Origin: a virus
IMG/VR virus record: IMGVR_UViG_3300027667_000003
Span: 7,606-71,605 of that record
DNA length: 64,000 bases
Strand: one strand, 5' to 3'
The stretch's first letter is position 1; each line of letters begins with the position of its first letter. The notes under the pieces were generated by a model, which was given only the letters and a program-made list of their open reading frames with translations, ran no database searches and was not told the DNA's origin. Made by a program: the position numbers and the translations under genes. Below are positions 20,717 through 49,318 of this stretch, in pieces.

Positions 20717-21175
20717 ATGAAAGTTAATATTTCACTCGTCATTGCCGCCTTTGCTGGCGCTCTCCTCATGGTAAGCGGATTTTGCATTGCTCATGCCGGC
20801 CCAAAATACCGATTTAAAACAAGCCCTGCGGCTCTTTATCAGAGTGACAATGAGCTTTATTTTGATAATAAACTCCCCAAGAATGTTATTTTCGTAGAAG
20901 GTGAGTGTCCCGATAAACCTACTGACGGCGGGTTTAATGTAGCCTGCACGTCTCATGCGGTAGGAACCCGTTGGTATAAAGTATGGGTCAGCCCCACCTA
21001 CAATGAAACTTTAACAGATGAGCGAGAGGCCGTCCTTCACGAGTCGTGTCATATCCGAGTATACGAAAATTATGAAAACAAAAACGAAACTTACGGAGGC
21101 GACGAACATGGCCCGGAATGGCAGGATTGCATGTTGACTTTGGCGAAAAAGGGCGCATTTGAAACAATCTGGTAA
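20717..21175 (+). CDS. SprT-like zinc metallopeptidase with N-terminal signal or anchor
   Basis: YFDNKLP...LHESCH...HGPEWQ; hydrophobic N-terminus. Confidence 0.75.
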   Translation: MKVNISLVIAAFAGALLMVSGFCIAHAGPKYRFKTSPAALYQSDNELYFDNKLPKNVIFVEGECPDKPTDGGFNVACTSHAVGTRWYKVWVSPTYNETLTDEREAVLHESCHIRVYENYENKNETYGGDEHGPEWQDCMLTLAKKGAFETIW

Positions 21176-22328: not shown

Positions 22329-22934
22329 ATGATTCGAATTAATCTGTTATCTAAGCTGGATAAAGATGTCGCCGCAGCCCGCGCAGCTATTCGAGCCCGC
22401 TCATTTAGTGGAAGAAACCCCGCATTAGGCAAAATGTTCAATTGTGAAATCTGCGGAAATCGTCATCGATCTATTAAGATATGTAAACCCATATATGCGA
22501 CCGGCCGCTATGATCTCGCGCCAGAAGGTGAAAAGAAAATTTTGATAGCATCACAAAAGACACTGAAGGGCGTGATAGGGGCGCGGGCAGTCGCCAAGAA
22601 GCGATTCCACCCCCATCCGAGCAAACGCAAGCTCCGACTGGTTCAGCGCACCCAGGAAATCTACCCCACAAACGCGCCGTATTTCAAGTATGCTGTTGAG
22701 TGCATGAAGTACTCTCGAACACTCGCCGGCCGACAATTACGATTTGAGACAGGTCGAACAAAGAAATTAGCTCGTGATCAGCAAAAACTATCTCGCCGCA
22801 TTAATCAACTGTCGGCTGTACCCGGCGCTCGACTGCCGAATCGCCAACTAACTGTGACGGCTATAGGTTTGCAGAGCCGCCGCGAGAAACTGGCGAAGAG
22901 GACCGAAGCCAACAAGGTGAAGAATGAATCTTAG
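22329..22934 (+). CDS. basic hypothetical protein with Zn-finger-like motif
   Basis: AAGGAG RBS; CEICGNRH...C; Arg/Lys-rich. Confidence 0.7.
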   Translation: MIRINLLSKLDKDVAAARAAIRARSFSGRNPALGKMFNCEICGNRHRSIKICKPIYATGRYDLAPEGEKKILIASQKTLKGVIGARAVAKKRFHPHPSKRKLRLVQRTQEIYPTNAPYFKYAVECMKYSRTLAGRQLRFETGRTKKLARDQQKLSRRINQLSAVPGARLPNRQLTVTAIGLQSRREKLAKRTEANKVKNES

Positions 22935-23718
22935 TCGAGTTAGCATAGGAATAAAAACGTTCCTTCGGGATGACAAGCTTTTCAACACTATCCAGGCCAT
23001 ACGGGATACCATGCCTGAAGTGCAAATGATCGTTGCTGATGACGGCGATGCGTCCGATGAAAAAGAGGGTGTCTATTCAGATTTACTTCGAGACGGACAT
23101 GAGGTTATTTGTATGCCGTTCGATTCGGGTTTCGGAGCGAAATCCAATATGATTGCTCGTGTAAACCAGCGACCTTACCTGTTGATCGGATCTGACGATT
23201 TTGATTTTCGACCGCCTTCAGTCCGACAAGGTATTGAAATTATGTTTTATGTTTTGGAGCACGATCCAAGTCTTAGTGTTGTCAGTGGGAGGGTCCGCGG
23301 ATCCTATGAGTTTAATATAGAGGATCAGGGAGATACAATAGTTGAACATAGGGTTTACTTTTCGATCATGCCTCCTGTGCCGCTATATTTTGAGTGCGAT
23401 CTAACGGTGAATTATTCTCTGATTCGACGGGAAATTTTTCAAAAAGTGAGTTGGGACGATGATGTGAAAATAGGTGGGGGCGAACACGGGGCCTTTTTCG
23501 TGGACATAAAACGCGCCGGATTTAAAGTTGCTGTTGCGCCCGGTGCTCAGATAAGTGAGCAACAAGGGGAGGATAGTGATAGATACAAACAATTTCGGAA
23601 AAGAGCTAGTTCTAGCGCTCGTCCGTGCTTTGATCGTCGTGGCATACGTAAATATGTTCTTGGCTCTGGTAAGATTGACTACGAAAAAATCGATTATAAA
23701 GAACCGCTAACTCGATGA
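22924..23718 (+). CDS. GT2-family glycosyltransferase
   Basis: IGIKTFLR, IVADDG, FDSGFGAKSN, LIGSDDFDF, GGEHGAFF. Confidence 0.8.
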   Translation: MNLSRVSIGIKTFLRDDKLFNTIQAIRDTMPEVQMIVADDGDASDEKEGVYSDLLRDGHEVICMPFDSGFGAKSNMIARVNQRPYLLIGSDDFDFRPPSVRQGIEIMFYVLEHDPSLSVVSGRVRGSYEFNIEDQGDTIVEHRVYFSIMPPVPLYFECDLTVNYSLIRREIFQKVSWDDDVKIGGGEHGAFFVDIKRAGFKVAVAPGAQISEQQGEDSDRYKQFRKRASSSARPCFDRRGIRKYVLGSGKIDYEKIDYKEPLTR

Positions 23719-24416
23719 AAACGTTGATTGCTGTTAAAAGCTGCCGGCAAGATCGTGACCGCGACTACCATGAAGTTATTCGCGGCACTTGGGGTCAAGA
23801 TGTTATCAATGCTGATCTTCATTTTTTCATGGGCAACGGCAATGGAATTTTGCTAGCGAATCAACGAGACGAAGTGAGTGTAAATTGTCCAGACGATTAT
23901 GCATCCTTACCTTTTAAAACTCGGGAAATCCTAAGGTGGTCAATTGAAAATAATTATGATTTTACTTTCCTCTGCGATACAGATAGTTTTATTATCCTGC
24001 AAAATCTGTTAAGAAGCGGATTCGAAAAATACGACTACTACGGTGTAATACGGAAGCCATTGGGTAAAACATTCGTTTATGAGTCAATAGACCGTGAAAA
24101 AAGACATACTTGGGTTGGTGAATGTTATCCTTGGGCATCAGGTGGATTAGGATATTTTCTCTCTCGAAAAGCCGCAGAGATTATCATTCAAAGAGAGCCG
24201 GATATTTGGGCTGAAGATTTGTGGATAGGTCAAATATTAGGACCGTTGTACGAAGCCGGAGAAATCAAAAGCGGAGATGCGAGCCAAATGATTAGAATCG
24301 GAGACGCCAAAAATTTAGAAGGGGTTGCCACTTGGCACTTTCCTTCCTATAAATACAAAAGCGGTTATGATTTGAAGTTCAAGTGGATGGAACGGATGTA
24401 CGCGGAGCACAGATGA
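23715..24416 (+). CDS. GT31 / galactosyltransferase-like glycosyltransferase
   Basis: DDYASLPFKT, FLCDTDSF (DxD), ASGGLGYFLSRKA, AEDLWIG. Confidence 0.75.
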   Translation: MKTLIAVKSCRQDRDRDYHEVIRGTWGQDVINADLHFFMGNGNGILLANQRDEVSVNCPDDYASLPFKTREILRWSIENNYDFTFLCDTDSFIILQNLLRSGFEKYDYYGVIRKPLGKTFVYESIDREKRHTWVGECYPWASGGLGYFLSRKAAEIIIQREPDIWAEDLWIGQILGPLYEAGEIKSGDASQMIRIGDAKNLEGVATWHFPSYKYKSGYDLKFKWMERMYAEHR

Positions 24417-25204
24417 TCACGATAAAACTCGTGGGAGGATTAGGAAATCAATTGTTCGGTTATGCGTTGGGCCGCTCTTTGGGCCTAACCCAAGAAGTTC
24501 AATTTGACATTTCGGGTTTCGCCCGCGACAACAAAAGAAAGTACAATTTGGATAAATTGGGATTACAACTCTCATTGGGTGTGGGAAAAGGCCACGGAAT
24601 TCACGAGTCAAGTTTAAAGTTTGATCCTGCTATTTTGAGAGTCGCAGAAGAAAAAGGTGATGCAATCCTTCATGGATATTGGCAGAATGAGAGGTATTTC
24701 AAACGTGCTCGTACTAGAATTCTATCCGAGGTGTTCGTTGGAATGGGTCGCAGCGAAGCAACCCGAGAATACGCAGATAGAATTCATTCAGATGGAAAGA
24801 ACACAGTTTTTATTCATATTAGAAGAACGGATTATTTGATCGAACCGCATAGATCATTTCATGGGATTTTATCGAACGATTATTATCTTGATGCGGTGTC
24901 CTCGTTACAAAGAAAAAATCCAGATTTGAAATTTTATGTTTTTTCGGACGATAAAGAATTTGCAAAATCTTTACTACTCGATTGTACTGTTGTAGAAAAT
25001 ACAAACGAATTCGAAGATCTATATCTTATGTCGCTATGCCAGAATGCTATTGTAGCGAATTCCAGTTATTCTTGGTGGGGCGCATATTTAGGACCAGATC
25101 AACGGGGTATTGTGATTGCTCCTGAATACTGGTTTAAAAATGAAGAGATGCGAGCACAAAGTGAAGATTTGGTACCGGTTAGGTGGGTGCGCCTTGCTAA
25201 CTAA
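24413..25204 (+). CDS. GT11 alpha-1,2-fucosyltransferase
   Basis: GGLGNQLFGYA, HGYWQNERYF, HIRRTDY, NSSYSWWGAYL. Confidence 0.93.
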   Translation: MITIKLVGGLGNQLFGYALGRSLGLTQEVQFDISGFARDNKRKYNLDKLGLQLSLGVGKGHGIHESSLKFDPAILRVAEEKGDAILHGYWQNERYFKRARTRILSEVFVGMGRSEATREYADRIHSDGKNTVFIHIRRTDYLIEPHRSFHGILSNDYYLDAVSSLQRKNPDLKFYVFSDDKEFAKSLLLDCTVVENTNEFEDLYLMSLCQNAIVANSSYSWWGAYLGPDQRGIVIAPEYWFKNEEMRAQSEDLVPVRWVRLAN

Positions 25205-26207
25205 ACACATCGTCATCACAGGTGGTTGCGGCTTTATTGGACATCATCTCATCGAAACTATCTTAGATCATACAAATTGGTGCATCAGTGTGTTTGATGC
25301 TCTATCCTATGCTTCCCGTGGCGTAGAGCGGCTACAAGATATTGGAGCATTAGACAGTGGAAGAGTTCGTGTATTTCCTGTGAATTTATCTCGCCCAATT
25401 CATGATGATGTGAAGAAAGAACTAGGGAGAGTAGATTATATTGTGCATATGGCAGCCGAAGTTCATGTAGATAAATCCATCGCTGATCCCGAAAAGTTCA
25501 TCCATTCAAATATTATGGGAACTTTTCAAATGCTACAATTGGCTCGGGAAATAAAGAGTGTATCCCATTTTCTATATTTCTCCACGGATGAAGTGTTCGG
25601 TCCGGCATTGGGGGGCGTGCCGCACAAGGAATGGGATAGATATAATTCTACAAATCCTTATTCCGCTACGAAAGCCGCGGGTGAAGAACTAGCCTTAGCT
25701 TGGGCCAACACTTACGGTGTGCCCTTAACCGTTACCCATTGCACTAATGTGTTTGGGGAAAGGCAGAATCCCGAAGCTTTTATCCCTAAAATGATAAGCA
25801 TGATTTCTAAAAGAGAGAAGGTTCGAATTCATACAAACGATAAAAACACACCCGGATCTCGATTTTATATCCATGCGGCTGACGTTGCGGATGCTTTGAT
25901 GTTTCTACTGACGATGAAACCATCAAGAGATAAATTTAATATTTCGGGATCTTTAGAGGTTTCGAACCTTGAAGTCGCTCGAAGCATCGCTGATTTTTTG
26001 AATGCATTTTTGAGGTATGATTTGGTAAGCACCGATCGACCCGGCTGCGATTTTCGCTACGCATTGGATGGGTCCAAGTTATCAAATATGGGGTGGCGAC
26101 CTCTTCGAAATTTTTCAGACAGCTTAAAGAACACTGTGCGATGGTATGAGAAAAACCCCAAGTGGTTAGAGAAAAGATCTTCCGCTGTATTTGGAGGATT
26201 GCGATGA
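25194..26207 (+). CDS. rmlB: dTDP-glucose 4,6-dehydratase
   Basis: TGGCGFIG, HMAAEVHVDKSI, STDEVFG, PYSATKA, DRPGCDFRYALD; start set at TTG 25194. Confidence 0.85.
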   Translation: MLTKHIVITGGCGFIGHHLIETILDHTNWCISVFDALSYASRGVERLQDIGALDSGRVRVFPVNLSRPIHDDVKKELGRVDYIVHMAAEVHVDKSIADPEKFIHSNIMGTFQMLQLAREIKSVSHFLYFSTDEVFGPALGGVPHKEWDRYNSTNPYSATKAAGEELALAWANTYGVPLTVTHCTNVFGERQNPEAFIPKMISMISKREKVRIHTNDKNTPGSRFYIHAADVADALMFLLTMKPSRDKFNISGSLEVSNLEVARSIADFLNAFLRYDLVSTDRPGCDFRYALDGSKLSNMGWRPLRNFSDSLKNTVRWYEKNPKWLEKRSSAVFGGLR

Positions 26208-26887
26208 GGACCGCTTTGGTTTTAATTGCTACCGGAGAGAAATATCGAAATTATGCAAAGGCATTTATAACCAATGCGAGAGAATATTTTGTGCCCCACG
26301 ATGTAGTTTTATTTACAGATAAACCTATGGAAAACACGGAGGCGAAGTATGCGGTCCCGTATACGTACCAAGGCTATCCTCAAGCCAGTTACCTTAGATA
26401 CCACGCATTTACAAGCATTCAAAAAATCTTATCTCGATATGATTTTATTTTCTATTCAGACGTTGACATGCGTTTCGTTGCTCCCGTAGGCGAAGAAATT
26501 TTTTCTGAGGGTATAACCGCCACTGAACATCCCGGTTACGTCGGATTAGCCGGAACACCTGAAACGAATGTCGCATCAACAGCGTACTGTCCTCAAGTGC
26601 GAACATATTTTTGCGGAGGATTTAACGGCGGATCCACTTCCGCATTTTTGGACATGTCTTTGGACATCGCTAGAGACATCGATATAGATCAATCCCGCGG
26701 AGTGCAAGCAATTTGGGTTGACGAGTCTCATCTTAACCGATATTTATTCGATCATCCACCTTCAAAAATTCTGAGTCCTTCTTATTGTTATCCTGAGAAA
26801 GACGATCATTACCGACAGATTTGGGCACGAGCGAATAGAGGGCCTTTTGAGCCCCGTCTTCTTGCCCTCGAAAAAGGTGGGCATTAA
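26204..26887 (+). CDS. GT6-family (ABO-type) glycosyltransferase
   Basis: IATGEKY, SDVDM (DxD), YFCGGFNGG, WVDESHLNRY. Confidence 0.88.
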   Translation: MRTALVLIATGEKYRNYAKAFITNAREYFVPHDVVLFTDKPMENTEAKYAVPYTYQGYPQASYLRYHAFTSIQKILSRYDFIFYSDVDMRFVAPVGEEIFSEGITATEHPGYVGLAGTPETNVASTAYCPQVRTYFCGGFNGGSTSAFLDMSLDIARDIDIDQSRGVQAIWVDESHLNRYLFDHPPSKILSPSYCYPEKDDHYRQIWARANRGPFEPRLLALEKGGH

Positions 26888-28320
26888 TGTTAGTGTCCAT
26901 TATCATTCCGGTCTATAACCAAGAAGAGTATCTAAGACAAGCGATAGAGTCGGCATTAACCCAAGATCTTTCTGATATTGTTGCTTTTCCGGATCTCGTT
27001 AATCTCGAAGTTATCATAGTAGATGACGGATCAACGGATGGTTCACTCAATGTGGCTCGCGAATGCAAAATACGAGAAATCGAACGTGAAGTACTTGAGT
27101 ACAGTCAAGAAACTAAACGATTAGCTGCCGAATACTTACAAAAGGTCGGTGATAAAATAAATATAGAATGGTACAAACATCGTGAGCAAGATTGCACGGA
27201 TCGTAAAGAAGGCCGCGAGGTAAGAACCACAAGAAAGACTCTTATAGCGCGAGAATTTGGATGTAGAATAAAAATCATTCAACAACCAAAAAATATGGGC
27301 TTATCTTCCGCCAGGAATGCGGGAATTAATGCAACGCATTCACGCAACGGGCACGATTTAATTTTACCTCTAGATGCGGACGATTGGATTGAGTCGAACT
27401 ATCTGAAAAAGACGATACCTCTAATGAAAGATAGAACCGGTGTTGTAGGAACGTGGGCATCCGTATTCGGCATAAAAGATTATATCTGGCATACACAGAC
27501 TCCAACAGTTGAAAAACTCATGGAGGATAATTGTGTTCCTGTTTGTTCTTTGATACGACGTGGAACATTAGAAGAAACCGGAAATTTCTATAATATACAA
27601 TTGAAGCATGGTTATGAAGATTGGAACTTATGGATTGATATTCTTAAAAGAGGTTGGAGAATTGAAATTCTTCCTGAACCTCTATTTCATTATCGAGAAA
27701 AACCGAATTCCATGTTGAAAGATGCTACAAAAATCCGACCTGAATTAGTTACAAAAATTCACTCTTTACATCCCGATCTTTGGCCTCCGGACGGTAATAG
27801 AAGTATGTTGGATAAGTGGGCAGGTCATCGAGACGCAACCGGTGCCAACGTTGCCGGCTTTTACGGCATAGAAGAGACTTATAAGAAGACTGCTGTCTTT
27901 CTTGATGATGGACCTGTAGAGGATTGGGGTTGCGGTAAGGCCTATGCTCGCAAATTCTTTACGCAGCCCTATGTAGGGGTAGATGGTACTCCGGACGGCT
28001 GCGACACCGTGGTTGATCTTACAAAATACACATCCAACACTCATGGAATTCTTTTAAGGCACGTATTGGAGCATAATTTTGAATGGGAGAGAGTGTTAAA
28101 GAACGCCTTGACATCCTGTGAGAAATTAGCTATTGTTGTATGCACGGCGTTCGGTGACACGACTCGACTATTGTATATTGATGAGTGGGGTATTCCTATC
28201 TTCTCATTTCATGAAGAAGATTTGACAAAGCATTTCCCTTCTTACACAAAAGAGGTTATCAGTGGAGAAGGGCAAGGTCAACAGTGTTCGGAGACAATTT
28301 TCTACGTGAGGGTAAAGTGA
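26887..28320 (+). CDS. GT2 glycosyltransferase with an internal insertion, fused to a C-terminal SAM-methyltransferase-like domain
   Basis: VSIIIPVYN, IVDDGSTD, NMGLSSARNAG, LDADD, EDWNLW; C-terminal EDWGCG and RHVLEH. Confidence 0.85.
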   Translation: MLVSIIIPVYNQEEYLRQAIESALTQDLSDIVAFPDLVNLEVIIVDDGSTDGSLNVARECKIREIEREVLEYSQETKRLAAEYLQKVGDKINIEWYKHREQDCTDRKEGREVRTTRKTLIAREFGCRIKIIQQPKNMGLSSARNAGINATHSRNGHDLILPLDADDWIESNYLKKTIPLMKDRTGVVGTWASVFGIKDYIWHTQTPTVEKLMEDNCVPVCSLIRRGTLEETGNFYNIQLKHGYEDWNLWIDILKRGWRIEILPEPLFHYREKPNSMLKDATKIRPELVTKIHSLHPDLWPPDGNRSMLDKWAGHRDATGANVAGFYGIEETYKKTAVFLDDGPVEDWGCGKAYARKFFTQPYVGVDGTPDGCDTVVDLTKYTSNTHGILLRHVLEHNFEWERVLKNALTSCEKLAIVVCTAFGDTTRLLYIDEWGIPIFSFHEEDLTKHFPSYTKEVISGEGQGQQCSETIFYVRVK

Positions 28321-29246
28321 GTTTTAACATTGACACCTGCCAATGGGTAATGTGGAGCGATCGAGATGATCGCAATACTTTTAATCACATTCATCGAGCA
28401 TTTCTCCGTGCTCTAAAGTATATGGGAAAAGAAGCTTATTACCTATCCAACGGGGATGATCTGTCTAAGTACGACTTCTCAAATACTATGTTCCTCAGTA
28501 TGAATTGCGTCCTTGAAGGGCTACCCCAAAGAGATGATTGCTTCTATTTCATCCACAATATTTCCAACGATCCTCATGAATCTTATTTTGACGGTCTGAA
28601 CATGATGGGATATGGTGTACACGTTCTATCAAATAAATATTCTTCGGCTGTTCAAGAGATAGGACCGGACGTTTACTTCGATGCTTCTTCTCGAACGATG
28701 ATGATGTATTGGGGAACTGACTTACTTCCCCATGAAATTGAGGCCAACAAACCCCTCCGAGTTTTCAACCAAGAGAGTCGCATATGTAATTATATCGGAT
28801 CCGTAGACGGGAATAAAAATAAAGCGATTAAAGACTTCTCCCGTGCCTGTCAAGAGAACGGCATTCAATATCAAGGATATGGAGGGTACAACAACGGCCG
28901 CGTTGTTTCGATCGACGAGCACATTCAACTCATTAAGGATTCGTACATGGCTCCGGCATTTCAAGGACTGGATCAAGTTGCGCAGGGATACATGTCCTGT
29001 CGCATTTTCAAAAATTTATCGTATGGTCAAATGCCACTTACTCACTCAGCTTATGCCAACGAGTTGTTTGGGGGAAAACTGATTTTCAATACAGATACGT
29101 ATCGGTTGTTTTTTGATGCGAAAGAACGCCTTCAGAGTATGTCGTTGAAAGAACTACACAATCTTATGGACGAGGTAGCCAAAAAGCATACCTATCTTCC
29201 AAAGATTGAAGCAATAATTAAAGCCGTTAAGATTTTGGAGGGCTAA
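28317..29246 (+). CDS. glycosyltransferase (GT-B, CgeB/YkvP-like)
   Basis: YWGTDLLP, NYIGS, YMSCRIFKNLSYGQMPLT, KHTY; cluster context. Confidence 0.6.
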   Translation: MSFNIDTCQWVMWSDRDDRNTFNHIHRAFLRALKYMGKEAYYLSNGDDLSKYDFSNTMFLSMNCVLEGLPQRDDCFYFIHNISNDPHESYFDGLNMMGYGVHVLSNKYSSAVQEIGPDVYFDASSRTMMMYWGTDLLPHEIEANKPLRVFNQESRICNYIGSVDGNKNKAIKDFSRACQENGIQYQGYGGYNNGRVVSIDEHIQLIKDSYMAPAFQGLDQVAQGYMSCRIFKNLSYGQMPLTHSAYANELFGGKLIFNTDTYRLFFDAKERLQSMSLKELHNLMDEVAKKHTYLPKIEAIIKAVKILEG

Positions 29247-30046
29247 TGATAAAAATTTTTACTTTCACATTCAATAAAATTGATTTTATCGAGTTACAGT
29301 ACCGAGCCCTTCAAAAGAATCTCAAGGACGAATTCGTGTTCACGGTTTTCAATAACTCTACCTTCGGTCAGGAGCGAGCAAGCGGTAACTACGAGAAAAT
29401 AAACGCAGAGTGCCACAGATTGGGCATTCCTGTTATTGATATCCAGATGGACAAGAAAATGGCCGAAGATTGCCAAATCATGGAAACAGCGGTTACTATT
29501 TTCAACCGTGGGGGCTCCTATACTTGCGCCAATGTGGCTCACGCTTACGCTTTCTATTGGGCCTGGAAGAGTGTTATCTCCAAAGAAAAAGATCCGATTC
29601 TAATACTGGATTTTGATATGTTCCTGGTAGCGCCCATCAAATTAACTGATTATCTGCAAAATTATCAGATGTGTTTTGTGCCTCAAGGAATAGGATTGAC
29701 CGTGGATTATATCCATCCCGGCTTCGTACTCTTTGACATGTCTAAGTTGCCAGATCCAGAATCTATGAATTGGTGGTGCGGCCGGGTCGAAGGCGTTCCC
29801 GTAGATGTTGGCGGCCATACAAGTTTATACTTAGCGGCGCATCCTGAACTTAAAACATTGAAATTGGCTTTTCAGCACGTACAGGACGATCCCGAAACAG
29901 ATTTTCATCCTTCAGATTATGCATTTCTTTTGATTGAAGGACAGCCTGTTTTCCTACACTATTACAGGGGCTCTAACTGGAATCAACAACCCTCTGATTA
30001 CCATATAAAGAAAACGGAATGGTTGAAGAAACGGTTGGAAGAATAA
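29246..30046 (+). CDS. putative GT-A fold glycosyltransferase
   Basis: VFNNS, LILDFDMF (DxD), FLHYYRGSNW; cluster context. Confidence 0.55.
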   Translation: MIKIFTFTFNKIDFIELQYRALQKNLKDEFVFTVFNNSTFGQERASGNYEKINAECHRLGIPVIDIQMDKKMAEDCQIMETAVTIFNRGGSYTCANVAHAYAFYWAWKSVISKEKDPILILDFDMFLVAPIKLTDYLQNYQMCFVPQGIGLTVDYIHPGFVLFDMSKLPDPESMNWWCGRVEGVPVDVGGHTSLYLAAHPELKTLKLAFQHVQDDPETDFHPSDYAFLLIEGQPVFLHYYRGSNWNQQPSDYHIKKTEWLKKRLEE

Positions 30047-30048
30047 GA

Positions 30049-30672
30049 ATGAAAAAATCATTCACCAATTATCCTAACTGTCACAGCAGTTCTCGACTGG
30101 ATGAATTTTGTGCCCGTCTGTTTAATTTCAAAAAAGACGGCACGTACGTTGACATCGGTTCAGCGCACTCAATGTATCATAATAACTCATATTTTTTAGA
30201 TTCACAATTGGGTTGGAGGGGGCTATGCGTTGAGCTTGACGGTCAATACAACAGTAGTTATGTAGATAGGAAAGGTTGCACTTATATCAATGGTGATGCC
30301 ACAAAAATAGATTACGCCGCTGCGTTTGCGAAATTGAATCCGTCCTCTTCTATAGATTATTTATCTCTGGATGTAGATGTGCTTGATCTGAAAGTTATTA
30401 AAATTTTACCGCACGATAAGTATCGGTTCAAGATCATAGGTATTGAGCATGACGCCTACCAATACGGCGATAAATACCGCGTTCCTCAAAGAGAGTTTCT
30501 TTTAAGCAAAGGATACGTTCTGACTTGCGCGGATATTTTTGTTCGACACCCAGATTTCGAAAATTGTCCTTTTGAAGACTGGTATCTTGATCCGCAATAT
30601 TTCAATAAAGAAGAAATAGAAAAAGTGAAGAGCGAATCGTGTTATCCAGAAGATGTAATCAGCAAACTATAG
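30049..30672 (+). CDS. FkbM-like SAM methyltransferase
   Basis: YVDIGS, NNSYFL...GWRGLCVE, IDYLSLDVD, FEDWY. Confidence 0.75.
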   Translation: MKKSFTNYPNCHSSSRLDEFCARLFNFKKDGTYVDIGSAHSMYHNNSYFLDSQLGWRGLCVELDGQYNSSYVDRKGCTYINGDATKIDYAAAFAKLNPSSSIDYLSLDVDVLDLKVIKILPHDKYRFKIIGIEHDAYQYGDKYRVPQREFLLSKGYVLTCADIFVRHPDFENCPFEDWYLDPQYFNKEEIEKVKSESCYPEDVISKL

Positions 30673-30694
30673 TAGATTTAAAAAGGAGAAACAA

Positions 30695-30985
30695 ATGGCA
30701 AATCTACAAAGAGCGATTGTATGCGGTGTAGAAGTTCAAGGAGACGGTGTAAACAACACTTTCATTCTTGATCTACTTCACGATCCGTATGTTATTTTAT
30801 TCGGTTCAGGAGTTTTAGGAACAGCTCAAAATTGGTTCGCTCAAAATCCAGGAGCTACACAACCAATCGGTGTGGGTGGTATTTCACCAAGTACCGCCAC
30901 TCTTGTTGATAACGTAATCACCTTCACTCTTAGTTCGGCTCCGCCAGTGGGGCAGAATGTCATCGAATTCACTCTATTTTTCTAG
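30695..30985 (+). CDS. beta-rich hypothetical protein
   Basis: AAGGAG RBS; rich in Gly/Thr/Ser/Val with few charged residues. Confidence 0.7.
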   Translation: MANLQRAIVCGVEVQGDGVNNTFILDLLHDPYVILFGSGVLGTAQNWFAQNPGATQPIGVGGISPSTATLVDNVITFTLSSAPPVGQNVIEFTLFF

Positions 30986-31000
30986 AATGAGTTAACAAAC

Positions 31001-31041
31001 TTGACACAGCCTATTTAGAATTCTATTTTAGGCTGTGTCAA
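31001..31041. promoter_or_regulatory. 41-bp near-perfect palindrome with TTGACA on both strands
   Basis: TTGACACAGCCTA / TAGGCTGTGTCAA arms around a central TAGAATTCTA. Confidence 0.5.
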
Positions 31042-31058
31042 ATTTCTTCGGAGGATTT

Positions 31059-31709
31059 ATGATAGAAACACAAAAACAAATTCTTGAATATTTTACCAAA
31101 TATAATTACGATTTCCTTCCCGGTAAAGATCCTTATACCTTCAAACCATTTCCCGGTGCCCTTGTACTTGATATCGGTGCTAATCTCGGAATGGTTACAG
31201 CATTCTGGGCGATGAATGGGGCGAAAGTTACATCCTACGAAGCGGATCCCGAAACCTATAAGATCATGACTGATATGTTCTCACGAACCGGTATCAATGC
31301 CGACGCGATAAATACTGCTATTTGGACCCACGAAGGCGAAGTTAATTTTAGGGGCGTTGGGCATATGGACGGAGATCGTCCTTGCCGTAACGGAAAAATA
31401 GAACAAAGTTCTAAAGCGACTCCCGTGCCTTGCATTACTTTTGCTTCTGCGTTGGGTGATACAGTTTGGGATTGTGTAAAAATGGATATTGAGGGTGCTG
31501 AGTTTGAAGTTTTAATGGGCACAGATTTGAATTCTATGAAGAATATTAAATACATGAATTTGGAGCTTCACGAAGAGAAAAATGATCCCGGATGGATGAC
31601 AGTGACTCCGGATCAAGTAAAACAGTTGCGAGAAAAAATGAGCCTGATTTTTGATATCAAAGATAGCGTTTTTTCAGACGGTTTTTGGCACCTGATTAAA
31701 AAAGGATAA
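31059..31709 (+). CDS. FkbM-family methyltransferase
   Basis: VLDIGANLG, SYEADP, CVKMDIEGAEFEVL; GGAGG RBS before ATG 31059. Confidence 0.88.
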   Translation: MIETQKQILEYFTKYNYDFLPGKDPYTFKPFPGALVLDIGANLGMVTAFWAMNGAKVTSYEADPETYKIMTDMFSRTGINADAINTAIWTHEGEVNFRGVGHMDGDRPCRNGKIEQSSKATPVPCITFASALGDTVWDCVKMDIEGAEFEVLMGTDLNSMKNIKYMNLELHEEKNDPGWMTVTPDQVKQLREKMSLIFDIKDSVFSDGFWHLIKKG

Positions 31710-31710
31710 T

Positions 31711-32652
31711 ATGAAAGACAAAATTGGGATTTTTCTTCCGGGTGCAAACGGCGACATCATGCAAGCCACATCCGTGTTGAAATACAAAGATGTTTTATGG
31801 CCCGACAAAGACATCGTTTGGTTTTGCAGTGCGCCGAATAATGAAATTCTGAAGTATAATGATGCTATATTGGAAATCAGGCATTGGCCGCATGGTTGGG
31901 GTTTACCAGAACGGTGTTTACTAGAGAATCCCAGTGCAATAGCCGATGGAAAACCACTGTGGGCAGATTTTAGTACACTCAAGGATTCAAACAATCACTT
32001 GGATCAAGGGCACAAGCACCTGTTTGAATCCACAAAGGATTTAGAGCGGGGGTATTTTCCCGCTCCTTGGATGATGTCAGTGGAGCAGCGGCACGGAATT
32101 GATTATCCTAATGTATCCAGAAAGGTGTTTGGGGCTGATCCGTCATGGGAGTGGCATCCTTATTTGGGTTTTTTAGACGGGGAAGAAAAGGCAGTAGCGG
32201 ATTTTTGTTACGGACTTCCTTATAAAAAGACTGTAATGCTGGAAACCTCTTTTTACTCCGGCAAATCGCCGTGGGACGATGACTTAATACGAGAAACTAT
32301 AGCCCTGTGCCGGCAAAAACTGGGCTCGTGCAATTTCATTTTCGCATGTTTAGAAGATAACTCTAGATTTTTTGATGTGGGTGTAGTATCTTGTTCTCAA
32401 TTTACAGTGAGGCAAACGGCATTAGTTAATAACTACTGCGATCTATTTATCGGGGTATCCAGCGGGATCTCTCAAGCAGTAAACTGTTGGGGAAATAAGC
32501 CGACCCCTAAAATACAGTATTGTGGATCTTTTACTATGAGTTCCATTTCAATAGCAAACGGCCCTTTCGAGCTTGTGACAACAGATCCGCCGAGTTTAAA
32601 TCATCGAGAACAATTCAAAACTAAGTTGTCTGATACATTGGATAAAATATGA
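31711..32652 (+). CDS. GT9 (heptosyltransferase-like) glycosyltransferase
   Basis: PGANGDIMQATSVL, ILKYND, CDLFIGVSSG. Confidence 0.7.
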   Translation: MKDKIGIFLPGANGDIMQATSVLKYKDVLWPDKDIVWFCSAPNNEILKYNDAILEIRHWPHGWGLPERCLLENPSAIADGKPLWADFSTLKDSNNHLDQGHKHLFESTKDLERGYFPAPWMMSVEQRHGIDYPNVSRKVFGADPSWEWHPYLGFLDGEEKAVADFCYGLPYKKTVMLETSFYSGKSPWDDDLIRETIALCRQKLGSCNFIFACLEDNSRFFDVGVVSCSQFTVRQTALVNNYCDLFIGVSSGISQAVNCWGNKPTPKIQYCGSFTMSSISIANGPFELVTTDPPSLNHREQFKTKLSDTLDKI

Positions 32653-32906
32653 AAATTAGTCTAGGCAATTTAATCGATCAATTAGCTATTGCCAATTTGC
32701 GCATTTGGGCGGCCGAAGACTTGAAGAGAGATCCAAAGGCCACCGACAAGCAGATAGCTGATGCCACCCGCATAACTAATGTTGCTAATCAACAGAGGAA
32801 CGATTTAATCCAGGCGATCGATGAGGGTTTGAACGAAATCGCGAAGGGTGAATTACAGAAACTATATAAACAGGGAACCACCAAGAAATACGGCAAGGGA
32901 GAATAA
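32649..32906 (+). CDS. small helical protein (DUF4254-like)
   Basis: SLGNLIDQLAIANLRIW...NQQRNDLIQAIDE. Confidence 0.55.
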   Translation: MKISLGNLIDQLAIANLRIWAAEDLKRDPKATDKQIADATRITNVANQQRNDLIQAIDEGLNEIAKGELQKLYKQGTTKKYGKGE

Positions 32907-32907
32907 G

Positions 32908-33426
32908 ATGAGCGACCCCACAAATTTACTCAATAGATTAGGAAAAGAATTCAATCTCCGGGATTTTGTAGAAACAGGAACCTGGAAGGGTGATAGATTT
33001 CGAGCCGTTCGGGGACAATTTGATCGCGCCTTTACGATCGATGTAGTCACAGATGCCCCCTTTGATTATGTTGAACCCGAGAATTATTTCTTTTTCAAAG
33101 GCTCCAGCGGGGAGCGGTTGGGTGAAATACTCCAAACATACGGAATTACGCGGGCTCTGTTTTGGCTGGATGCGCACGGCAACGAGACGTATTATGTAGA
33201 TGACGGCAAGGATCAAGTTCCAAAAGAATTAGAAGTGATCACACAATACGCTCCTGATTCTCTAGTAGTGATTGATGACATTACTTTTGCAAAAGGTAAG
33301 TATTGGGTTAATACATCATACGAATTTGTAGTTCCCCAAGGATGGCAAGTAAGATATTGGCCCTCAATATTAGGCCGACAAGCCATTTTGCATCGAGGCG
33401 GATATACCCTACCGGAAAACTTATGA
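32908..33426 (+). CDS. SAM-methyltransferase-like protein
   Basis: FVETGTWKGD, LFWLDAH, VVIDDI. Confidence 0.65.
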   Translation: MSDPTNLLNRLGKEFNLRDFVETGTWKGDRFRAVRGQFDRAFTIDVVTDAPFDYVEPENYFFFKGSSGERLGEILQTYGITRALFWLDAHGNETYYVDDGKDQVPKELEVITQYAPDSLVVIDDITFAKGKYWVNTSYEFVVPQGWQVRYWPSILGRQAILHRGGYTLPENL

Positions 33427-34652
33427 TAACTCGAACCACATGCCGAGTCTGTGAAGGACAATTCGAATCTGTTCTTTCTTTGGGAGAACAATATGTTTCA
33501 AACTTTTTACTGCCCAGCGAATCGGACGGAATTAAAGCACCTCTGGAGCTAGTACTTTGCAAGCAGTGTTCCCTGCTACAGCTACGCCATACCGTGCCGT
33601 GCAACGCGATGTATCAGAATTATTGGTATCGTTCGGGCACCAATCAGACCATGCGAAATGCTTTAGCGGATATTGCTAACACAGCCGAACAGTTGGTAGG
33701 TCTTCGCCCCGGAGAAGCCGTCCTGGATATTGGATGCAATGACGGCACTTTACTTGCATCTTATAAAACAAAGAATATTTATAGAATTGGTTTCGATCCC
33801 GCAGAGAATTTAGCACACCTATCCAGAGATGTAGCCCATGAGGTAATAATTGATTTTTTCACAGCAGAAAAATTTCAACAGCATTTTCCCTTACCGGATC
33901 TTCAACCTATGATCGTGACTTCTATCGCAATGTTTTATGATTTAGAGGATCCCAATAAGTTTGTTGCAGATGTCAAGAAAGTCATGCATCCTGACGGCGT
34001 GTGGGTTTTGCAAATGAGTTACTTGCCCATGATGCTAAAGCAGCATGATTTCGGAAATATCTGCCACGAACATCTTGAATATTATTCTCTGAAATCTCTT
34101 GAGTATCTATTAGATTTGCACGATCTCACAATCTGTGATGTGCAGTTTAATGATGTCAACGGAGGTAGCATTCGAGTTTTTATCATGAATGACGACGAAG
34201 CCAAGTGTGATGTATGTGCAATTAAAAGAATCGAAGCGATACTAGCTCAAGAAGATGAAATGAAACTAGATGAAATTAGTACTTATCGAGAATTCGCTAC
34301 TTGGATAGAGCGAATCCGAGATGATATATTTCAATTTGTAGATGAACGGGTATGCCAAGGAAAAAGAGTGGCTATATATGGCGCTTCAACTAAAGGGAAT
34401 ACTATGTTGCAGTATTTTGATTTAGACTGGAGATGTCTTGTTGCTTCAGAACGTAATCCCGATAAGTGGGGAAAAGTAACAGTGGGTACTCGCATTCCGA
34501 TTGTCTCGGAAGAAGAAGCGCGAGCCCTCAAGCCGGATTATTTCCTTGTGTTGCCCTGGCACTTCATCGAGGAGTTTGTTACTCGTGAGAAAGATTATTT
34601 ATTGGGCGGAGGAAGATTCATTGTTCCACTTCCACATTTCACTTTAATTTAG
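33423..34652 (+). CDS. NDP-hexose C-methyltransferase (Zn-binding N-terminus)
   Basis: CRVC...CKQC, VLDIGCNDGTLL, HEHLEYYS, YGASTKGNTML, PDYFLVLPWHF. Confidence 0.9.
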   Translation: MITRTTCRVCEGQFESVLSLGEQYVSNFLLPSESDGIKAPLELVLCKQCSLLQLRHTVPCNAMYQNYWYRSGTNQTMRNALADIANTAEQLVGLRPGEAVLDIGCNDGTLLASYKTKNIYRIGFDPAENLAHLSRDVAHEVIIDFFTAEKFQQHFPLPDLQPMIVTSIAMFYDLEDPNKFVADVKKVMHPDGVWVLQMSYLPMMLKQHDFGNICHEHLEYYSLKSLEYLLDLHDLTICDVQFNDVNGGSIRVFIMNDDEAKCDVCAIKRIEAILAQEDEMKLDEISTYREFATWIERIRDDIFQFVDERVCQGKRVAIYGASTKGNTMLQYFDLDWRCLVASERNPDKWGKVTVGTRIPIVSEEEARALKPDYFLVLPWHFIEEFVTREKDYLLGGGRFIVPLPHFTLI

Positions 34653-34664
34653 GAGAATATAGAC

Positions 34665-35618
34665 ATGAAGAAGAAAGCGCTCATTACTGGAATTACTGGT
34701 CAAGACGGATCTTATCTGGCCGAGTTCCTCTTAAAAAAGGGGTACGAAGTACATGGAATTATCCGGCGCACAAGCAGCAACAATACGGAGCGCATTAATT
34801 CTATCATTGATGATCTCCATCTCCATTCCGGCGATATGACGGACGCCGAATCTTTGAGTAGAGTCGTTCGAATTGTGAAGCCCAACGAAGTTTATAACTT
34901 ATCGGCGATGAGTCACGTACGCACCAGTTTCGAAGTGCCGGAGTATACCTCAGAAGTAGACGGGTTGGGTGCTCTGCGCTTACTCGATGCAATTAAGGAT
35001 GTTGATTATGTGAAGTTTTACCAAGCCAGCACCAGTGAACTCTTCGGTTTGGCCGGCCCCCCGCAAAGTGAATCAACGCCCTTTTATCCTTGCTCTCCTT
35101 ACGGGATAGCGAAGATGTTCGCTTACTGGACTACAATTAACTATCGTCAAAATTATGGGATGTTTGCCTGCAACGGCATCTTGTTTAATCATGAGAGTCC
35201 TCGACGAACTGAAACTTTTGTCAGCAGGAAAATAGCGAAAGGATTGGTTCGCATCAGTTTGGGAAAGCAAGACAAACTCTTTTTAGGAAATCTGGATGCC
35301 AAGCGAGATTGGGGTTATGCGCCCGAGTTTGTTGAAGCAATGTGGCTTATGTTACAGCAAAACAAACCGGACGATTTTGTTATCGCGACGGGTGAAAGCC
35401 ATACCGTTCGAGAGTTTTTGGATGTCGCCGCAGAGCGATTAGGTTTGGACTGGACTAAACACGTCGAAATAGATCCGCAATATTATCGCCCCATGGAGGT
35501 AGATTATCTCTTGGGAGACGCTTCTAAAGCTCGTCGAATTCTGGGGTGGGAACCTAAAGTAAAATTCCGGGAACTTGTGGAAATTATGGTCAAAGCGGAG
35601 TTGAAAAACAATGATTGA
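34665..35618 (+). CDS. gmd: GDP-mannose 4,6-dehydratase
   Basis: [57 protein letters not shown]. Confidence 0.97.
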
Positions 35619-36546
35619 TTTATACAAGAAACGGGTATGTGTTACTGGTGGAGCCGGATTTTTCGGCCGTCGCATTGTTGAAGAATTATTTAAGGGAGGA
35701 TGTAAGCATGTATTTGTACCCCGCTCCTCTTTTTACGATCTTAGAACAGAGAAGGATATTAGGAGTATGCTGTGCTATCATCCCTCGGATATTATAATCC
35801 ATGCGGCGGCCCAAGCCGGTGGAATAGGACTCAATCAGAATAAACCCGCAGAGTTGTTTTATAACAACGCCGTTATGGGGGCTCTGTTGATGAATCAAGC
35901 CTACAAATGGGGGGTGGAAAAATTTATTCAAATCGGGACCGTTTGCGAATATCCCAAATTAACAGAAACTCCTTTTCGGGAAGAGGATTTGTGGAAAGGA
36001 TATCCCGAAGAAACGAACGCACCTTACGGTGTAGCTAAGAAGTCGTTGTTAGTGATGGGTCAGGCTTACCGCCAACAATATGGCTTCAATGTGATTCATC
36101 TTTTGCCTGTAAACCTGTATGGACCGGGTGATAATTTCAAGATTGAAAGCTCTCATGTCATACCCGCTTTAATCCGAAAGTTCGTGGAAGCAAAGAAAAC
36201 AGATGAGTCAACCGTGAAATTGTGGGGTACAGGCAACGCCAGTCGAGAATTTCTTTACGTTGAAGATGCAGCTAAAGCCGTTGTGAAAGCAACTCAACTG
36301 TATGATAAAGCGGATCCTATAAACATCGGATCGGGCAAGGAGATCAAAATATCTTCTCTTGCTTTAATGATCGGGAGTATGGTAGGATATGAGGGTGAGA
36401 TAACATTTGATCCATCGAAACCCGATGGGCAGCCTCGTCGCCTTTTAGATACTCGGAAAGCGCTGGAAGAATTTGGTTTTGTGGCTACAACAGATTTAAA
36501 AGACGGCCTTCGAAAGACGATCGATTGGTACACGAAAGGAGGGTAG
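35611..36546 (+). CDS. fcl: GDP-L-fucose synthase (epimerase/reductase)
   Basis: [65 protein letters not shown]. Confidence 0.93.
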
Positions 36547-36548
36547 TG

Positions 36549-36713
36549 ATGGACATTCATATCTACAAAAAAGGTAAGTATATTCGAACCGATCGGAACG
36601 TCGAATCAGGGGTCATTGATATAGACTCCTTAAAAGGTAGTATATCAGATTACACAATTGAACAAGATGTTGTGTTGCCGCCCACACGATGGCCGGAAGG
36701 TGCTGAACTGTGA
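36549..36713 (+). CDS. small hypothetical protein
   Basis: GGAGG RBS; GTGA overlap with the next gene. Confidence 0.55.
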   Translation: MDIHIYKKGKYIRTDRNVESGVIDIDSLKGSISDYTIEQDVVLPPTRWPEGAEL

Positions 36714-37042
36714 AAAACTATGTCAGTTTGAAACAATTGAAAATCTTTTATGACGAACTCAATGAGAGATTTTTTAATAACGATCTCCCAAAGAGAGCCA
36801 CTGTAAAATTCTCTGATATGGAAGAGGACGGCCTCTGTACATGCTCCGAGAAGCTGATTGAAATTCACAAAGATCTTCAACGACACCCCGATTTGATGAT
36901 TGTTGTCTTGTTACACGAAATGGGCCACTTAAAATTAAGTGACGATTATGTAGGTATGCCCACTACTGCGAGTCACGGAATGCGGTTTCAAGCCGAGCTT
37001 GTGAGATTGTTCAAAGCCGGCGCTTACGATAACGTTTTATGA
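36710..37042 (+). CDS. SprT-like zinc metallopeptidase
   Basis: LNERFFNNDLP, LLHEMGH, HGMRF. Confidence 0.8.
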   Translation: MKNYVSLKQLKIFYDELNERFFNNDLPKRATVKFSDMEEDGLCTCSEKLIEIHKDLQRHPDLMIVVLLHEMGHLKLSDDYVGMPTTASHGMRFQAELVRLFKAGAYDNVL

Positions 37043-39023: not shown

Positions 39024-39225
39024 TAATTCAGTAATGTTTTCAATAGGACACCTAGAAGGTTGGATCGGACAAGCCGGCCAAATGGGTGCGAACAATGCTG
39101 AAACTGCGTTGGCGCATCTCAAGATTGTTGAAGAGGCCTACAAAGAACAGATCATAACTCTTCGGACATTCCGCAAAGTTGCTCAAGAAATCAAGGGGAG
39201 GGCGGATGCTGCCGCGAATCTTTAA
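39013..39225 (+). CDS. hypothetical protein
   Basis: GGAGG RBS; overlaps neighbours. Confidence 0.65.
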   Translation: MADNNSVMFSIGHLEGWIGQAGQMGANNAETALAHLKIVEEAYKEQIITLRTFRKVAQEIKGRADAAANL

Positions 39226-48273: not shown

Positions 48274-48348
48274 GTGGCGGTGGCTCAACGGCTAGAGCAC
48301 GCGACTGTGGCTCGCGGTATGTGGGTTCGATTCCCACCCGTCACCCCA
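48274..48348 (+). tRNA. tRNA-His (GTG), C73, encoded CCA, C (not G) at position -1
   Basis: Acceptor GTGGCGG/CCGTCAC, D stem GCTC/GAGC, anticodon stem CGCGA/TCGCG with loop CTGTGGC, T arm GTGGG-TTCGATT-CCCAC; upstream bases are TTCC. Confidence 0.95.
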
Positions 48349-48362
48349 ACAAAGGAGATATC

Positions 48363-49269: not shown

Positions 49270-49301
49270 TGCTTGACATCCTTTCGAAATCATGAGACTA
49301 T
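49264..49301 (+). promoter_or_regulatory. phage promoter motif AAATAGTGCTTGACA upstream of the integrase
   Basis: Exact copy of 14388-14402; -10 element poorly defined; GGAGG RBS follows. Confidence 0.5.
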
Positions 49302-49318
49302 TGATTTCGGAGGTCATA

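Follow-up and report, generated by a model that had tools for sequence, protein, structure and literature searches.

A compact putative glycan-assembly island without export genes at a fixed genome position in a phage lineage

A glycosyltransferase-rich island in a phage genome

We describe a 13.6-kb island of 17 co-oriented genes, predicted to assemble and decorate a complex glycan, in a 64,000-nucleotide stretch of DNA (the window) that corresponds to bases 7606-71605 of the 110,892-bp IMG/VR virus record IMGVR_UViG_3300027667_000003. The island occupies window positions 22924-36546, or 12% of the 110.9-kb genome, and an 18th open reading frame (ORF) lies directly upstream. Several glycosyltransferases (GTs) are clustered here with nucleotide-sugar enzymes within 13.6 kb. 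The eight GTs are a GT2, a GT31-like, a GT11, a GT6, a GT2 fusion, a CgeB-like GT-B, a member of an unannotated GT-A family and a GT9-like enzyme; they are accompanied by four supported methyltransferases, one doubtful methyltransferase domain and three nucleotide-sugar enzymes besides the C-methyltransferase. The enzyme families, the predicted solubility of their members, the coupling of the genes, the conservation of a single locus in the lineage and the absence of export genes all come directly out of the comparisons presented below. As the acceptor of the glycan, we tentatively favour the phage's own virion proteins, by analogy with other viruses.

The first-pass annotation of the window had proposed about eight GTs, 4-5 methyltransferase domains and the phage's own nucleotide-sugar enzymes, arranged in a near-continuous run of overlapping or abutting genes. 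Its coordinates and gene order were right and every gene that it listed is present (eight GTs, four methyltransferases plus one weak domain, and Gmd, Fcl and a 4,6-dehydratase); a 96-aa ORF and a DUF4254 ORF had been omitted. With refined starts, neighbouring genes overlap by 1-11 nt at 12 of the 17 junctions, and the largest gap is 73 nt. Scans of the island for promoter-like and terminator-like sites showed no enrichment. Enrichment was likewise absent for the phage promoter-like motif AGTGCTTGACA, of which the closest good copy on the upstream side is at position 20665. Because the starts overlap and promoters and terminators are not enriched, the island appears to form one translationally coupled unit. 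It sits in the replication arm of the genome, between the replication genes and a GH108 endolysin gene on the same strand. The coupling, the lack of promoter or terminator enrichment and the same-strand lytic neighbours make it most likely that the island is co-expressed with the lytic genes rather than being a lysogenic moron.

Absence of export and priming genes

All of the island enzymes are predicted from their sequences to be soluble. No ORF of at least 70 aa in the genome contains more than two hydrophobic 19-mers, and the island ORFs contain none. Since there is no polytopic ORF genome-wide, no Wzx, Wzy, WecA/WbaP, WaaL, ABC-2 or GtrA/B/C-type protein is encoded. Likewise, no polytopic membrane ORF was found in the islands of five relatives, and none of the ~100 island genes in eight phages has an export or priming function. 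The lack of a flippase, a polymerase and a priming transferase, initially reported for the window, thus extends to the 110.9-kb genome and to the islands of five relatives; the search of the rest of the genome for wzx/wzy and base hydroxymethylases, which had been suggested as a check, was run and found none. Nor does the island have the make-up of a Wzx/Wzy- or ABC-dependent O-antigen or capsular polysaccharide cluster, as the phage encodes no phosphoglycosyl transferase, no flippase or ABC transporter and no polymerase, functions that the host could supply.

Reshuffled islands in related phages

At least seven related phages of 78-112 kb carry a reshuffled version of the island at the same genome position. 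Two IMG/VR fragments, G001 and G002, share core genes with the window phage at 46-62% identity. In G002, a 5-kb mini-island with a GT31-like gene, a GT11 gene, a Methyltransf_24-like gene and a GT2 gene occupies the same place and has the same flanks as in the window phage, namely the 201-aa ORF on the left and a Metallophos gene on the right. In G001, the left neighbour is present and there are no island genes in its 58 kb. Further relatives (L015, L016, L017, L032 and L033) were found by tracing the GT-A family to contigs in ENA, Logan, NCBI and JGI, and four IMG/VR records (L050-L053) were added, two of which represent the same phages. IMG/VR pattern scans with the single CgeB-like or GT-A protein returned nothing, and an alignment of closer homologues recovered the records.

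The flanking nuclease and the endolysin or Metallophos genes are common to all of the related contigs but one. In the relatives traced by GT-A, the islands measure 10-16 kb and vary in order and content; with G002 the range becomes 5-16 kb. All draw on a common gene pool of GT31-like, GT6, GT11, GT2, CgeB-like GT-B, GT-A, FkbM-like, GT9-like with DUF4254, C-methyltransferase, Gmd and usually Fcl genes. For example, L032 carries two GT6 copies in an island larger than that of the window phage. Most relatives have an RmlD-like reductase gene and a different 4,6-dehydratase gene directly upstream of the GT-A gene, whereas the window phage has instead an RmlB-like gene elsewhere in the island, whose product is not orthologous to the relatives' dehydratases (21-27% identity to their short-chain dehydrogenases/reductases, SDRs). 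The island proteins are 33-82% identical between phages, compared with 55-59% for the core helicase and nuclease; since the island genes diverge about as the core genes do, a long residence of the island in these phages is suggested. In L015 (L015:6976-8207), the C-methyltransferase is split into a Methyltransf_13 ORF (91 aa) and a Methyltransf_14 ORF (94 aa) and the GT9-like gene is fragmentary, which suggests partial decay of the cassette.

The exceptional contig, L051, is part of G154 (IMGVR_UViG_3300050821_009835), a 265-kb jumbo phage record with a uniform GC content of 46%. Its cassette (L054:11000-20000, L055:1-13000) holds 11 island genes in one block at 26-70% identity (70% for Gmd), along with further SDRs, a GT2 and no export gene. 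No homologue of the window phage's portal or other virion proteins was detectable in G154, and the two phages share essentially only the glycan cassette. By their IMG identifiers, G154, G001 and L050 come from the same metagenome. Because G154 carries the block without shared virion genes, the island appears to be a portable cassette that is exchanged between unrelated phages of one habitat.

For two decades large glycan islands have been known from phages, with no experimental demonstration of their target. The large GT-rich islands of cyanomyoviruses are of this functionally unsolved kind, to which the present island belongs. What is new here is the set of reshuffled islands at a fixed locus in one lineage, the relative that lacks the island and the transfer to an unrelated jumbo phage. 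Its particular value lies in the compact, fully coupled architecture, the transfer across lineages, the GT-A family and the ~9 comparable islands (5-16 kb), at a fixed locus and with one horizontally shared copy. This set lends itself to the question of whether the genes in the cassette follow the host or the virion.

Possible acceptors of the glycan

We propose that the island is a self-contained, operon-like assembly line for a glycan, expressed during lytic development. Gmd and Fcl would supply GDP-L-fucose for GT11, and the RmlB-like dehydratase and the C-methyltransferase would make a 6-deoxy or branched-chain hexose, plausibly used by the GT-A enzyme, which follows the dehydratase in the relatives. 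The eight soluble GTs would build a heteroglycan stepwise in the cytoplasm, probably with a Gal-beta-1,3-HexNAc core, alpha-1,2-fucose and alpha-1,3-Gal/GalNAc, that is, a blood-group-like motif. Three to five methyltransferases would decorate or cap the glycan, the FkbM-type and Methyltransf_24-type enzymes by O-methylating sugars. The virion proteins would receive the glycan either ahead of particle assembly or in its course, as happens in chloroviruses, mimiviruses and mycobacteriophages, and the resulting coat, variable between strains, would protect the particle or adjust its surface.

The choice of virion proteins draws on an analogy: the only viruses with such gene sets that have been solved experimentally glycosylate their own particles. 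Moreover, three of the island GT families fall in predominantly viral clusters, and the island forms part of a lytic operon instead of being arranged like a moron. The first-pass annotation had deduced stepwise synthesis on a cytoplasmic acceptor such as virion proteins from the soluble enzymes and the missing export genes. These premises hold; the conclusion is not unique, because the GTs that build O-units and the lipopolysaccharide (LPS) core in bacteria are likewise soluble or peripheral, and the product could leave the cytoplasm through host MsbA, Wzx or ABC transporters.

The sugar linkages, the timing and above all the acceptor are what we infer, and several points weigh against virion proteins as the acceptor. 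The position of the island is in the replication arm, and ~24 kb separate it from the closest virion gene. No virion protein has a conspicuous Ser/Thr-rich acceptor tail; some contain Ser/Thr-rich 30-mers (up to 47%), and the capsid-like protein has none. The island seems dispensable for assembly, since G001 lacks it at the syntenic site. As G154 has the same cassette and no shared virion proteins, an acceptor provided by a shared host would be easier to explain. The bacterial counterparts of the GT9-like/DUF4254 pair point to the LPS core. Finally, we know of no phage of a Gram-negative host for which virion glycosylation has been demonstrated.

The full proposal is that ~100-kb soil phages, whose hosts are probably Gram-negative, and an unrelated jumbo phage share a portable, chlorovirus-like cassette that coats their own virion proteins with a strain-variable, fucosylated and O-/C-methylated glycan, made in the cytoplasm and bearing a blood-group-A/B-like motif. 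Taken as a whole it is possible but doubtful. If true, it would be the first case outside the Actinobacteria of phages that glycosylate their virions autonomously, with at least one previously unannotated GT-A family. With the glycan on the particle, soil phage surfaces would be chemically far more diverse than assumed, which bears on adsorption, decay and recognition, and the island would also be a source of new enzymes for glycoengineering, namely sugar methyltransferases and soluble GTs of the GT11, GT6 and GT-A kinds.

The alternative that survives best, and which we regard as quite possible if somewhat doubtful, is remodelling of the host envelope. At the inner membrane, on its cytoplasmic side, the soluble phage GTs would act on a lipid-linked acceptor of the host. 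This would be lipid A-core, as happens in lipooligosaccharide synthesis, or an undecaprenyl pyrophosphate-linked O-unit or exopolysaccharide unit for which a host transferase does the priming; the host's MsbA, Wzx or ABC transporters would carry the altered glycan out. Receptors would thereby change during infection or lysogeny, excluding competitors and sparing the progeny loss on infected cells and debris. In bacteria, the GT11, GT6 and O-unit GT2 enzymes that have been characterised, such as those of the E. coli O86 pathway, are soluble or peripheral and use lipid-linked acceptors. Soluble GTs are thus normal in such a setting, and the missing phage transmembrane proteins are no argument against it. 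It is also the usual reading of the cyanophage 'LPS' clusters. The GT9-like fold matches heptosyltransferase-family proteins, DUF4254 stands beside a GT9 gene in an Acidobacteriota genome, and the GH108 and PG_binding_3 endolysin fits a Gram-negative host. In addition, the cassette is common to a jumbo phage of the same metagenome without shared virion genes, the island is far from the virion genes and missing from one relative, and lysogeny is possible (a recombinase gene ~1 kb from tRNA-His, and a junction in a metagenome-assembled genome, MAG, described below).

Against an envelope target, the islands of eight phages contain no priming transferase, flippase, polymerase, ligase or Kdo/lipid A gene, whereas bacterial clusters almost always co-localise such export and priming genes. 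The island lies in a lytic replication operon, not as a moron beside int/att, and the known lysogenic-conversion systems (GtrABC, Oac) are membrane proteins, which are absent here. We know of no experiment in which a lytic phage was shown to rebuild LPS by means of such a cluster. If the glycan is nevertheless on the host, phages would have a new, flippase-free way of remodelling LPS.

That the glycan is attached to some other cytoplasmic target seems unlikely. Non-virion phage or host proteins (for takeover or anti-defence), a soluble oligosaccharide or a small-molecule glycoside would suit the soluble enzymes, the C-methyltransferase of the antibiotic-deoxysugar type and the failure to identify an acceptor. 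However, eight GTs, several methyltransferases and strain-level reshuffling resemble a surface glycan under diversifying selection, and there are no aglycone-biosynthesis genes.

Finally, hypermodification of DNA, in which the GTs would decorate hydroxymethylated bases and block restriction, was rejected as very improbable: glucosylation of DNA is a classical role of phage GTs, and DNA glycans of several sugars have been described (Pyle et al. 2024, as cited in PMC12619734), but the thymidylate-synthase/hydroxymethylase family (PF00303) is absent from the genome (control positive in 10 of 14 genomes), a Tet_JBP search of the genome gave no match with a control that was itself silent, and GT11, GT6, GT31-like enzymes and sugar methyltransferases are not known as DNA-modifying enzymes.

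Comparison with known glycosylation systems

The closest experimentally solved analogue appears to be the chlorovirus PBCV-1, which has the same ingredients: eight mostly soluble, early-expressed GTs, the GT-GT-methyltransferase fusion A064R, the sugar methyltransferase A061L and a viral GMD. The island resembles the PBCV-1 Vp54 and Megavirinae fibril machineries in its soluble GTs, GT-methyltransferase fusion, O-methyltransferases, GMD/6-deoxyhexose pathways and lack of membrane export. However, Megavirinae and PBCV-1 are viruses of eukaryotes whose glycan and acceptor are chemically known, while the window phage is read from its genes alone, and the similarity to chlorovirus and giant-virus GTs is one of fold (Foldseek TM-scores 0.4-0.6), with sequence-level orthology not shown.

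Virion glycosylation is, as the first-pass annotation stated, established in some mycobacteriophages and giant viruses. The mycobacteriophages Che8, Corndog and Myrna have O-glycosylated virions (Freeman et al. 2023, as cited in PMC12619734), and their GTs, according to PMC12619734, glycosylate the phages' own capsid and tail-tube subunits. As in the window phage, these GTs are encoded away from the capsid genes. These mycobacteriophages have a few GTs, an actinobacterial host and C-terminal acceptor sites, whereas the window phage has eight GTs with sugar-nucleotide genes and a likely Gram-negative host; no acceptor motif was identified in its virion proteins.

Among phages, cyanomyoviruses (P-SSM2, S-SCSM1, S-SCSM2R) have similar runs of soluble GTs (GT2, GT11, GT6) with Gmd, Fcl and nucleotide-sugar epimerases. 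S-SCSM1 encodes Gmd, Fcl and an alpha-1,2-fucosyltransferase, and the window phage GT6 is 34% identical to that of P-SSM2. The description of the gene set as unusually large was an overstatement, given the 13 GTs and 22 cell-wall synthesis or modification genes published for S-SCSM2R and the larger island of L032. In contrast to the cyanomyoviruses, the carrier here is a 111-kb soil phage with a T7-like portal-scaffold-capsid order and probably a Gram-negative soil host, and the genes form a single translationally coupled 13.6-kb block without Kdo, PgaA or TagD-type genes. The window phage adds the C-methyltransferase, the FkbM methyltransferases and the GT9-like/DUF4254 pair.

In E. coli O86, Helicobacter mustelae and Bacteroides ovatus, a trio of GT31-like, GT11 and GT6 enzymes builds H- and A/B-like epitopes. 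The island shares with these bacteria the combination of GT11, GT6, a beta-1,3-galactosyltransferase and gmd/fcl. Unlike the phage island, the bacterial blood-group-like clusters have wzx, wzy and a priming step, and the phage GT6 keeps the DXD motif where BoGT6a of B. ovatus has NXN. Like the GtrABC/Oac systems, the island could provide a phage-encoded change of a surface glycan, and the GT2 N-terminus has a weak PHROG match to GtrB-like proteins (35 bits). However, GtrA, GtrB and GtrC are membrane proteins encoded beside int/att and none is present in the window phage. Lysogenic conversion of the GtrABC/Oac type was rejected, there being no membrane proteins and the integrase lying 13 kb from the island.

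Assignment of the individual genes

Direct matches were obtained with hidden Markov models of Pfam and NCBIfam, and also with PHROGs, and equivalog cut-offs are cited where applicable (Table 1). PDB sequence searches with the five ORFs that lack a Pfam match gave nothing usable.

Table 1. Genes of the island and its left-hand neighbour, with window coordinates, main evidence and homologues in related phages
Feature	Coordinates	Strand	Main evidence	Homologues (identity)
201-aa ORF	22329..22934	+	11-nt overlap with first GT; conserved left-hand neighbour	G001 (island-less), G002, L016, L017, L050, L052, L053
GT2-like GT-A glycosyltransferase	22924..23718	+	PF00535 24.0 bits, cut-off 23.3 (marginal)	G002, L016, L050, L052, L053 (32-49%)
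GT31-like (Galactosyl_T/Fringe-like) glycosyltransferase	23715..24416	+	PF01762 34.8 bits	G002, L015, L016, L017, L032, L033, L050-L053, G154
GT11 alpha-1,2-fucosyltransferase-like	24413..25204 (ORF from 24383)	+	PF01531 77.7 bits	
NDP-glucose 4,6-dehydratase (RmlB-like)	25194..26207 (ORF from 25116)	+	TIGR01181 262 bits, equivalog cut-off 365	
GT6 retaining alpha-1,3-Gal/GalNAc-transferase-like	26204..26887 (ORF from 26162)	+	PF03414 91 bits	
Two-domain protein, 477 aa	26887..28320	+	GT2, aa 1-299 (PF00535 99.9 bits), and C-terminal domain, aa 306-477	
GT-B of the Glyco_trans_1_2 (CgeB-like) kind	28317..29246 (ORF from 28284)	+	Structural neighbours; no Pfam match	L015, L016, L017, L050-L053, G154 (33-55%)
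GT-A fold glycosyltransferase, family unannotated in Pfam	29246..30046	+	AlphaFold2 model and Foldseek	
Divergent FkbM-family methyltransferase	30049..30672 (ORF from 30019)	+	PF05050 in homologues	L016, L050, L052, L053 (71-72%)
96-aa ORF	30695..30985	+	No family match	
FkbM-family methyltransferase (sugar O-methyltransferase type)	31059..31709 (ORF from 31035)	+	PF05050 44.2 bits; phrog_8156 68.6 bits	
GT9-like (heptosyltransferase-like) GT-B	31711..32652	+	Atlas structural neighbours; no Pfam match	L016, L050, L052, L053 (65-67%)
Short DUF4254 protein	32649..32906	+	PF14063 38.7 bits, N-terminal 60 of 144 profile positions	
Class I S-adenosylmethionine-dependent methyltransferase (Methyltransf_24/YrrM-like)	32908..33426	+	Family profile against PDB	
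NDP-hexose C-methyltransferase	33423..34652 (ORF from 33342)	+	PF08421 46.4, PF13489 50.9, PF08484 153.2 bits	
GDP-mannose 4,6-dehydratase (Gmd)	34665..35618	+	TIGR01472 482 bits, equivalog cut-off 415; PF16363 439.6 bits	
GDP-L-fucose synthase-like epimerase/reductase (Fcl)	35611..36546	+	NF047922 301 bits (best match), cut-off 500	L015, L017, G154 (55-65%, to their Fcl)

The GT31-like gene, whose product is a candidate beta-1,3-Gal/HexNAc transferase, is the most widely retained gene of the island. GT11 likely starts at the ATG at 24413, with a 4-nt overlap, and contains the motifs GGLGNQLF, HIRRTDY and SSYSWWGAYL, in agreement with the profile and the HxRRxD and SxxSWW motifs of CAZy family GT11. 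For the RmlB-like enzyme the likely start is the TTG at 25194, and the best PDB matches are dTDP-glucose 4,6-dehydratases (2hun at 1e-59). The GT6 protein aligns best with BoGT6a, at 6.4e-30, and also with human GTA/GTB, at ~1e-23; it has the features of CAZy family GT6, with a DVD (DXD) motif, the conserved catalytic Glu in WVDES and the donor-site segment YFCGGFNGG. The GT2 at the start of the island has an ADDG motif near its N-terminus.

The 477-aa protein had been described as a fusion of a GT2 and a methyltransferase. The GT2 part of this description is sound, and the C-terminal domain is possibly a class I methyltransferase, with a Methyltransf_23 E-value of 0.12 and VEDWGCG, VGVDG and LRHVLEH motifs read by eye. 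In L016 a separate ORF of 179 aa corresponds to this domain (49% identity); L032 has the fused form, which is 68% identical over its full length. A PDB profile search with it gave chance-level matches only, and its AlphaFold2 model, from a 3-sequence alignment (pLDDT 45), was discarded.

The CgeB-like GT-B was assigned from its Atlas model (pTM 0.86), whose structural neighbours at TM-scores of 0.83-0.87 are phage clusters, some with PF13524. The gene at 29246 has at least 87 metagenomic homologues, none with a Pfam domain, among which D124, D187 and H238 are invariant. From their alignment a model with a pLDDT of 95.2 was obtained (AlphaFold2), and Foldseek returned, at a probability of 1.0, the retaining GT-A enzymes XXYLT1, GT6, LgtC and LARGE1, along with phage and giant-virus GTs among the neighbours. 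The model supports the GT-A fold class and not a family, as the TM-scores are only 0.35-0.48; it nonetheless appears to give a well-modelled GT-A family beyond current Pfam coverage.

For the FkbM-like ORF at 30049, the Pfam E-value of the protein itself is 0.044; it has 4333 homologues, and PF05050 was the sole family match, in 7 of 30 sampled (best 3e-6). No pairwise similarity was seen between the two FkbM-like ORFs. Among the 84 homologues of the ORF at 32908, one is named O-methyltransferase YrrM and one carries PF13578, and the ETGT..G motif is invariant; the family profile matched methyltransferases only in the PDB (best E-value 7e-4), and the homologue in L032 carries PF13578. The C-methyltransferase, matched by Methyltransf_13, Methyltransf_23 and Methyltransf_14, has the layout of a zinc-binding N domain, a class I methyltransferase domain and a C-terminal domain.

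The GT9-like GT-B has Bacteroidota GT9 proteins as its Atlas neighbours (TM-scores 0.72-0.76). In the phages, DUF4254 is always found directly 3' of the GT9-like gene, in L016, L032 and L033 as well, and the pair is present in fragmentary form in L015. The bacterial DUF4254 proteins are 200-230 aa long; the domain was found in 9 of 151 Acidobacteriota genomes sampled and stood beside a GT9 heptosyltransferase gene at one of the six Acidobacteriota loci inspected. It may be a partner or accessory domain of the GT9-like enzyme.

The 96-aa ORF has no Pfam or PHROG match and no homologue among the relatives examined. The 201-aa ORF, probably not an island enzyme, has no Pfam or PHROG match either, and its 10 metagenomic homologues are all unannotated. 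Two small ORFs with an SprT-like metalloprotease domain flank the island region, at 20717-21175 (23.8 bits, below the cut-off) and 36710-37042 (29.7 bits).

The phage genome and its lifestyle

The virus record is rated complete (CheckV 100%) and is a bona fide phage genome, with genes for a DNA polymerase, a primase, helicases, a portal and scaffold-like and capsid-like proteins, which bears out the phage origin assumed at the outset. The public sequencing runs that hold it are two soil metagenomes only, and no RNA run among the public runs holds its sequence. Megablast comparison of the island with 50,697 phage records found none that matched. There is no near relative among these deposited phages, and a cultured one is lacking, as the DNA polymerase is at most 35% identical to those of cultured phages.

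The plus-strand arm (genome 0-59 kb) encodes a primase-helicase, a family A DNA polymerase, two helicases and the GH108/PG_binding_3 endolysin, a type that fits a Gram-negative host. On the minus-strand arm (genome 59-104 kb) lie genes for the portal, for a scaffold-like protein rich in Ala, Glu and Lys, for a capsid-like protein of 327 aa and for very large ejection-type proteins that contain a lytic transglycosylase domain. A tyrosine recombinase gene (PF00589, 34.9 bits; window ORF 49292-50251) lies ~1 kb downstream of a phage tRNA-His gene (region 48274-50251) and has a homologue in G002 (38.5% identity); it hints at a temperate lifestyle or at a site-specific recombination function.

A portal 72% identical and a capsid-like protein 91.5% identical to those of the window phage are encoded by a relative in a Bryobacterales (Acidobacteriota) MAG contig, CAVXJY010000090.1. 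The virion module takes up the first 40 kb of this 209-kb contig (GC 0.48) and ends at ~40 kb with tRNA-His and tRNA-Asn. The DNA that it adjoins has a GC content of 0.58-0.63. Genes of bacterial type (AbiEi, an LRR protein, a Mutator transposase, RtcB, MoxR) occupy the remaining 170 kb (GC 0.56-0.64), with 30 tRNA genes arrayed at 47-50.5 kb. The relative's replication arm and island are absent from the Bryobacterales MAG. The contig may hold a prophage that is truncated where the contig stops, or its assembly may be chimeric. Lysogeny is possible, given the tyrosine recombinase near tRNA-His and the relative's virion module abutting bacterial-type DNA, and a temperate phage of an acidobacterial host is a weak lead.

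The capsid-like ORF of the MAG relative ends ~55 residues earlier than that of the window phage, where a GIY-YIG-type homing endonuclease gene (phrog_314, 129 bits) lies directly 3' of the capsid-like gene (genome 82999-85024; L013:11999-14024). As the relative's ORF is shorter, an endonuclease or an intron may be active at the 3' end of the capsid gene, or the relative may carry a frameshift. Finally, the replication arm encodes at 39179-40444 of the window a BCS1_N and AAA ATPase protein (65 and 59 bits; phrog_7485, 279 bits), an architecture best known from the mitochondrial BCS1 translocases.

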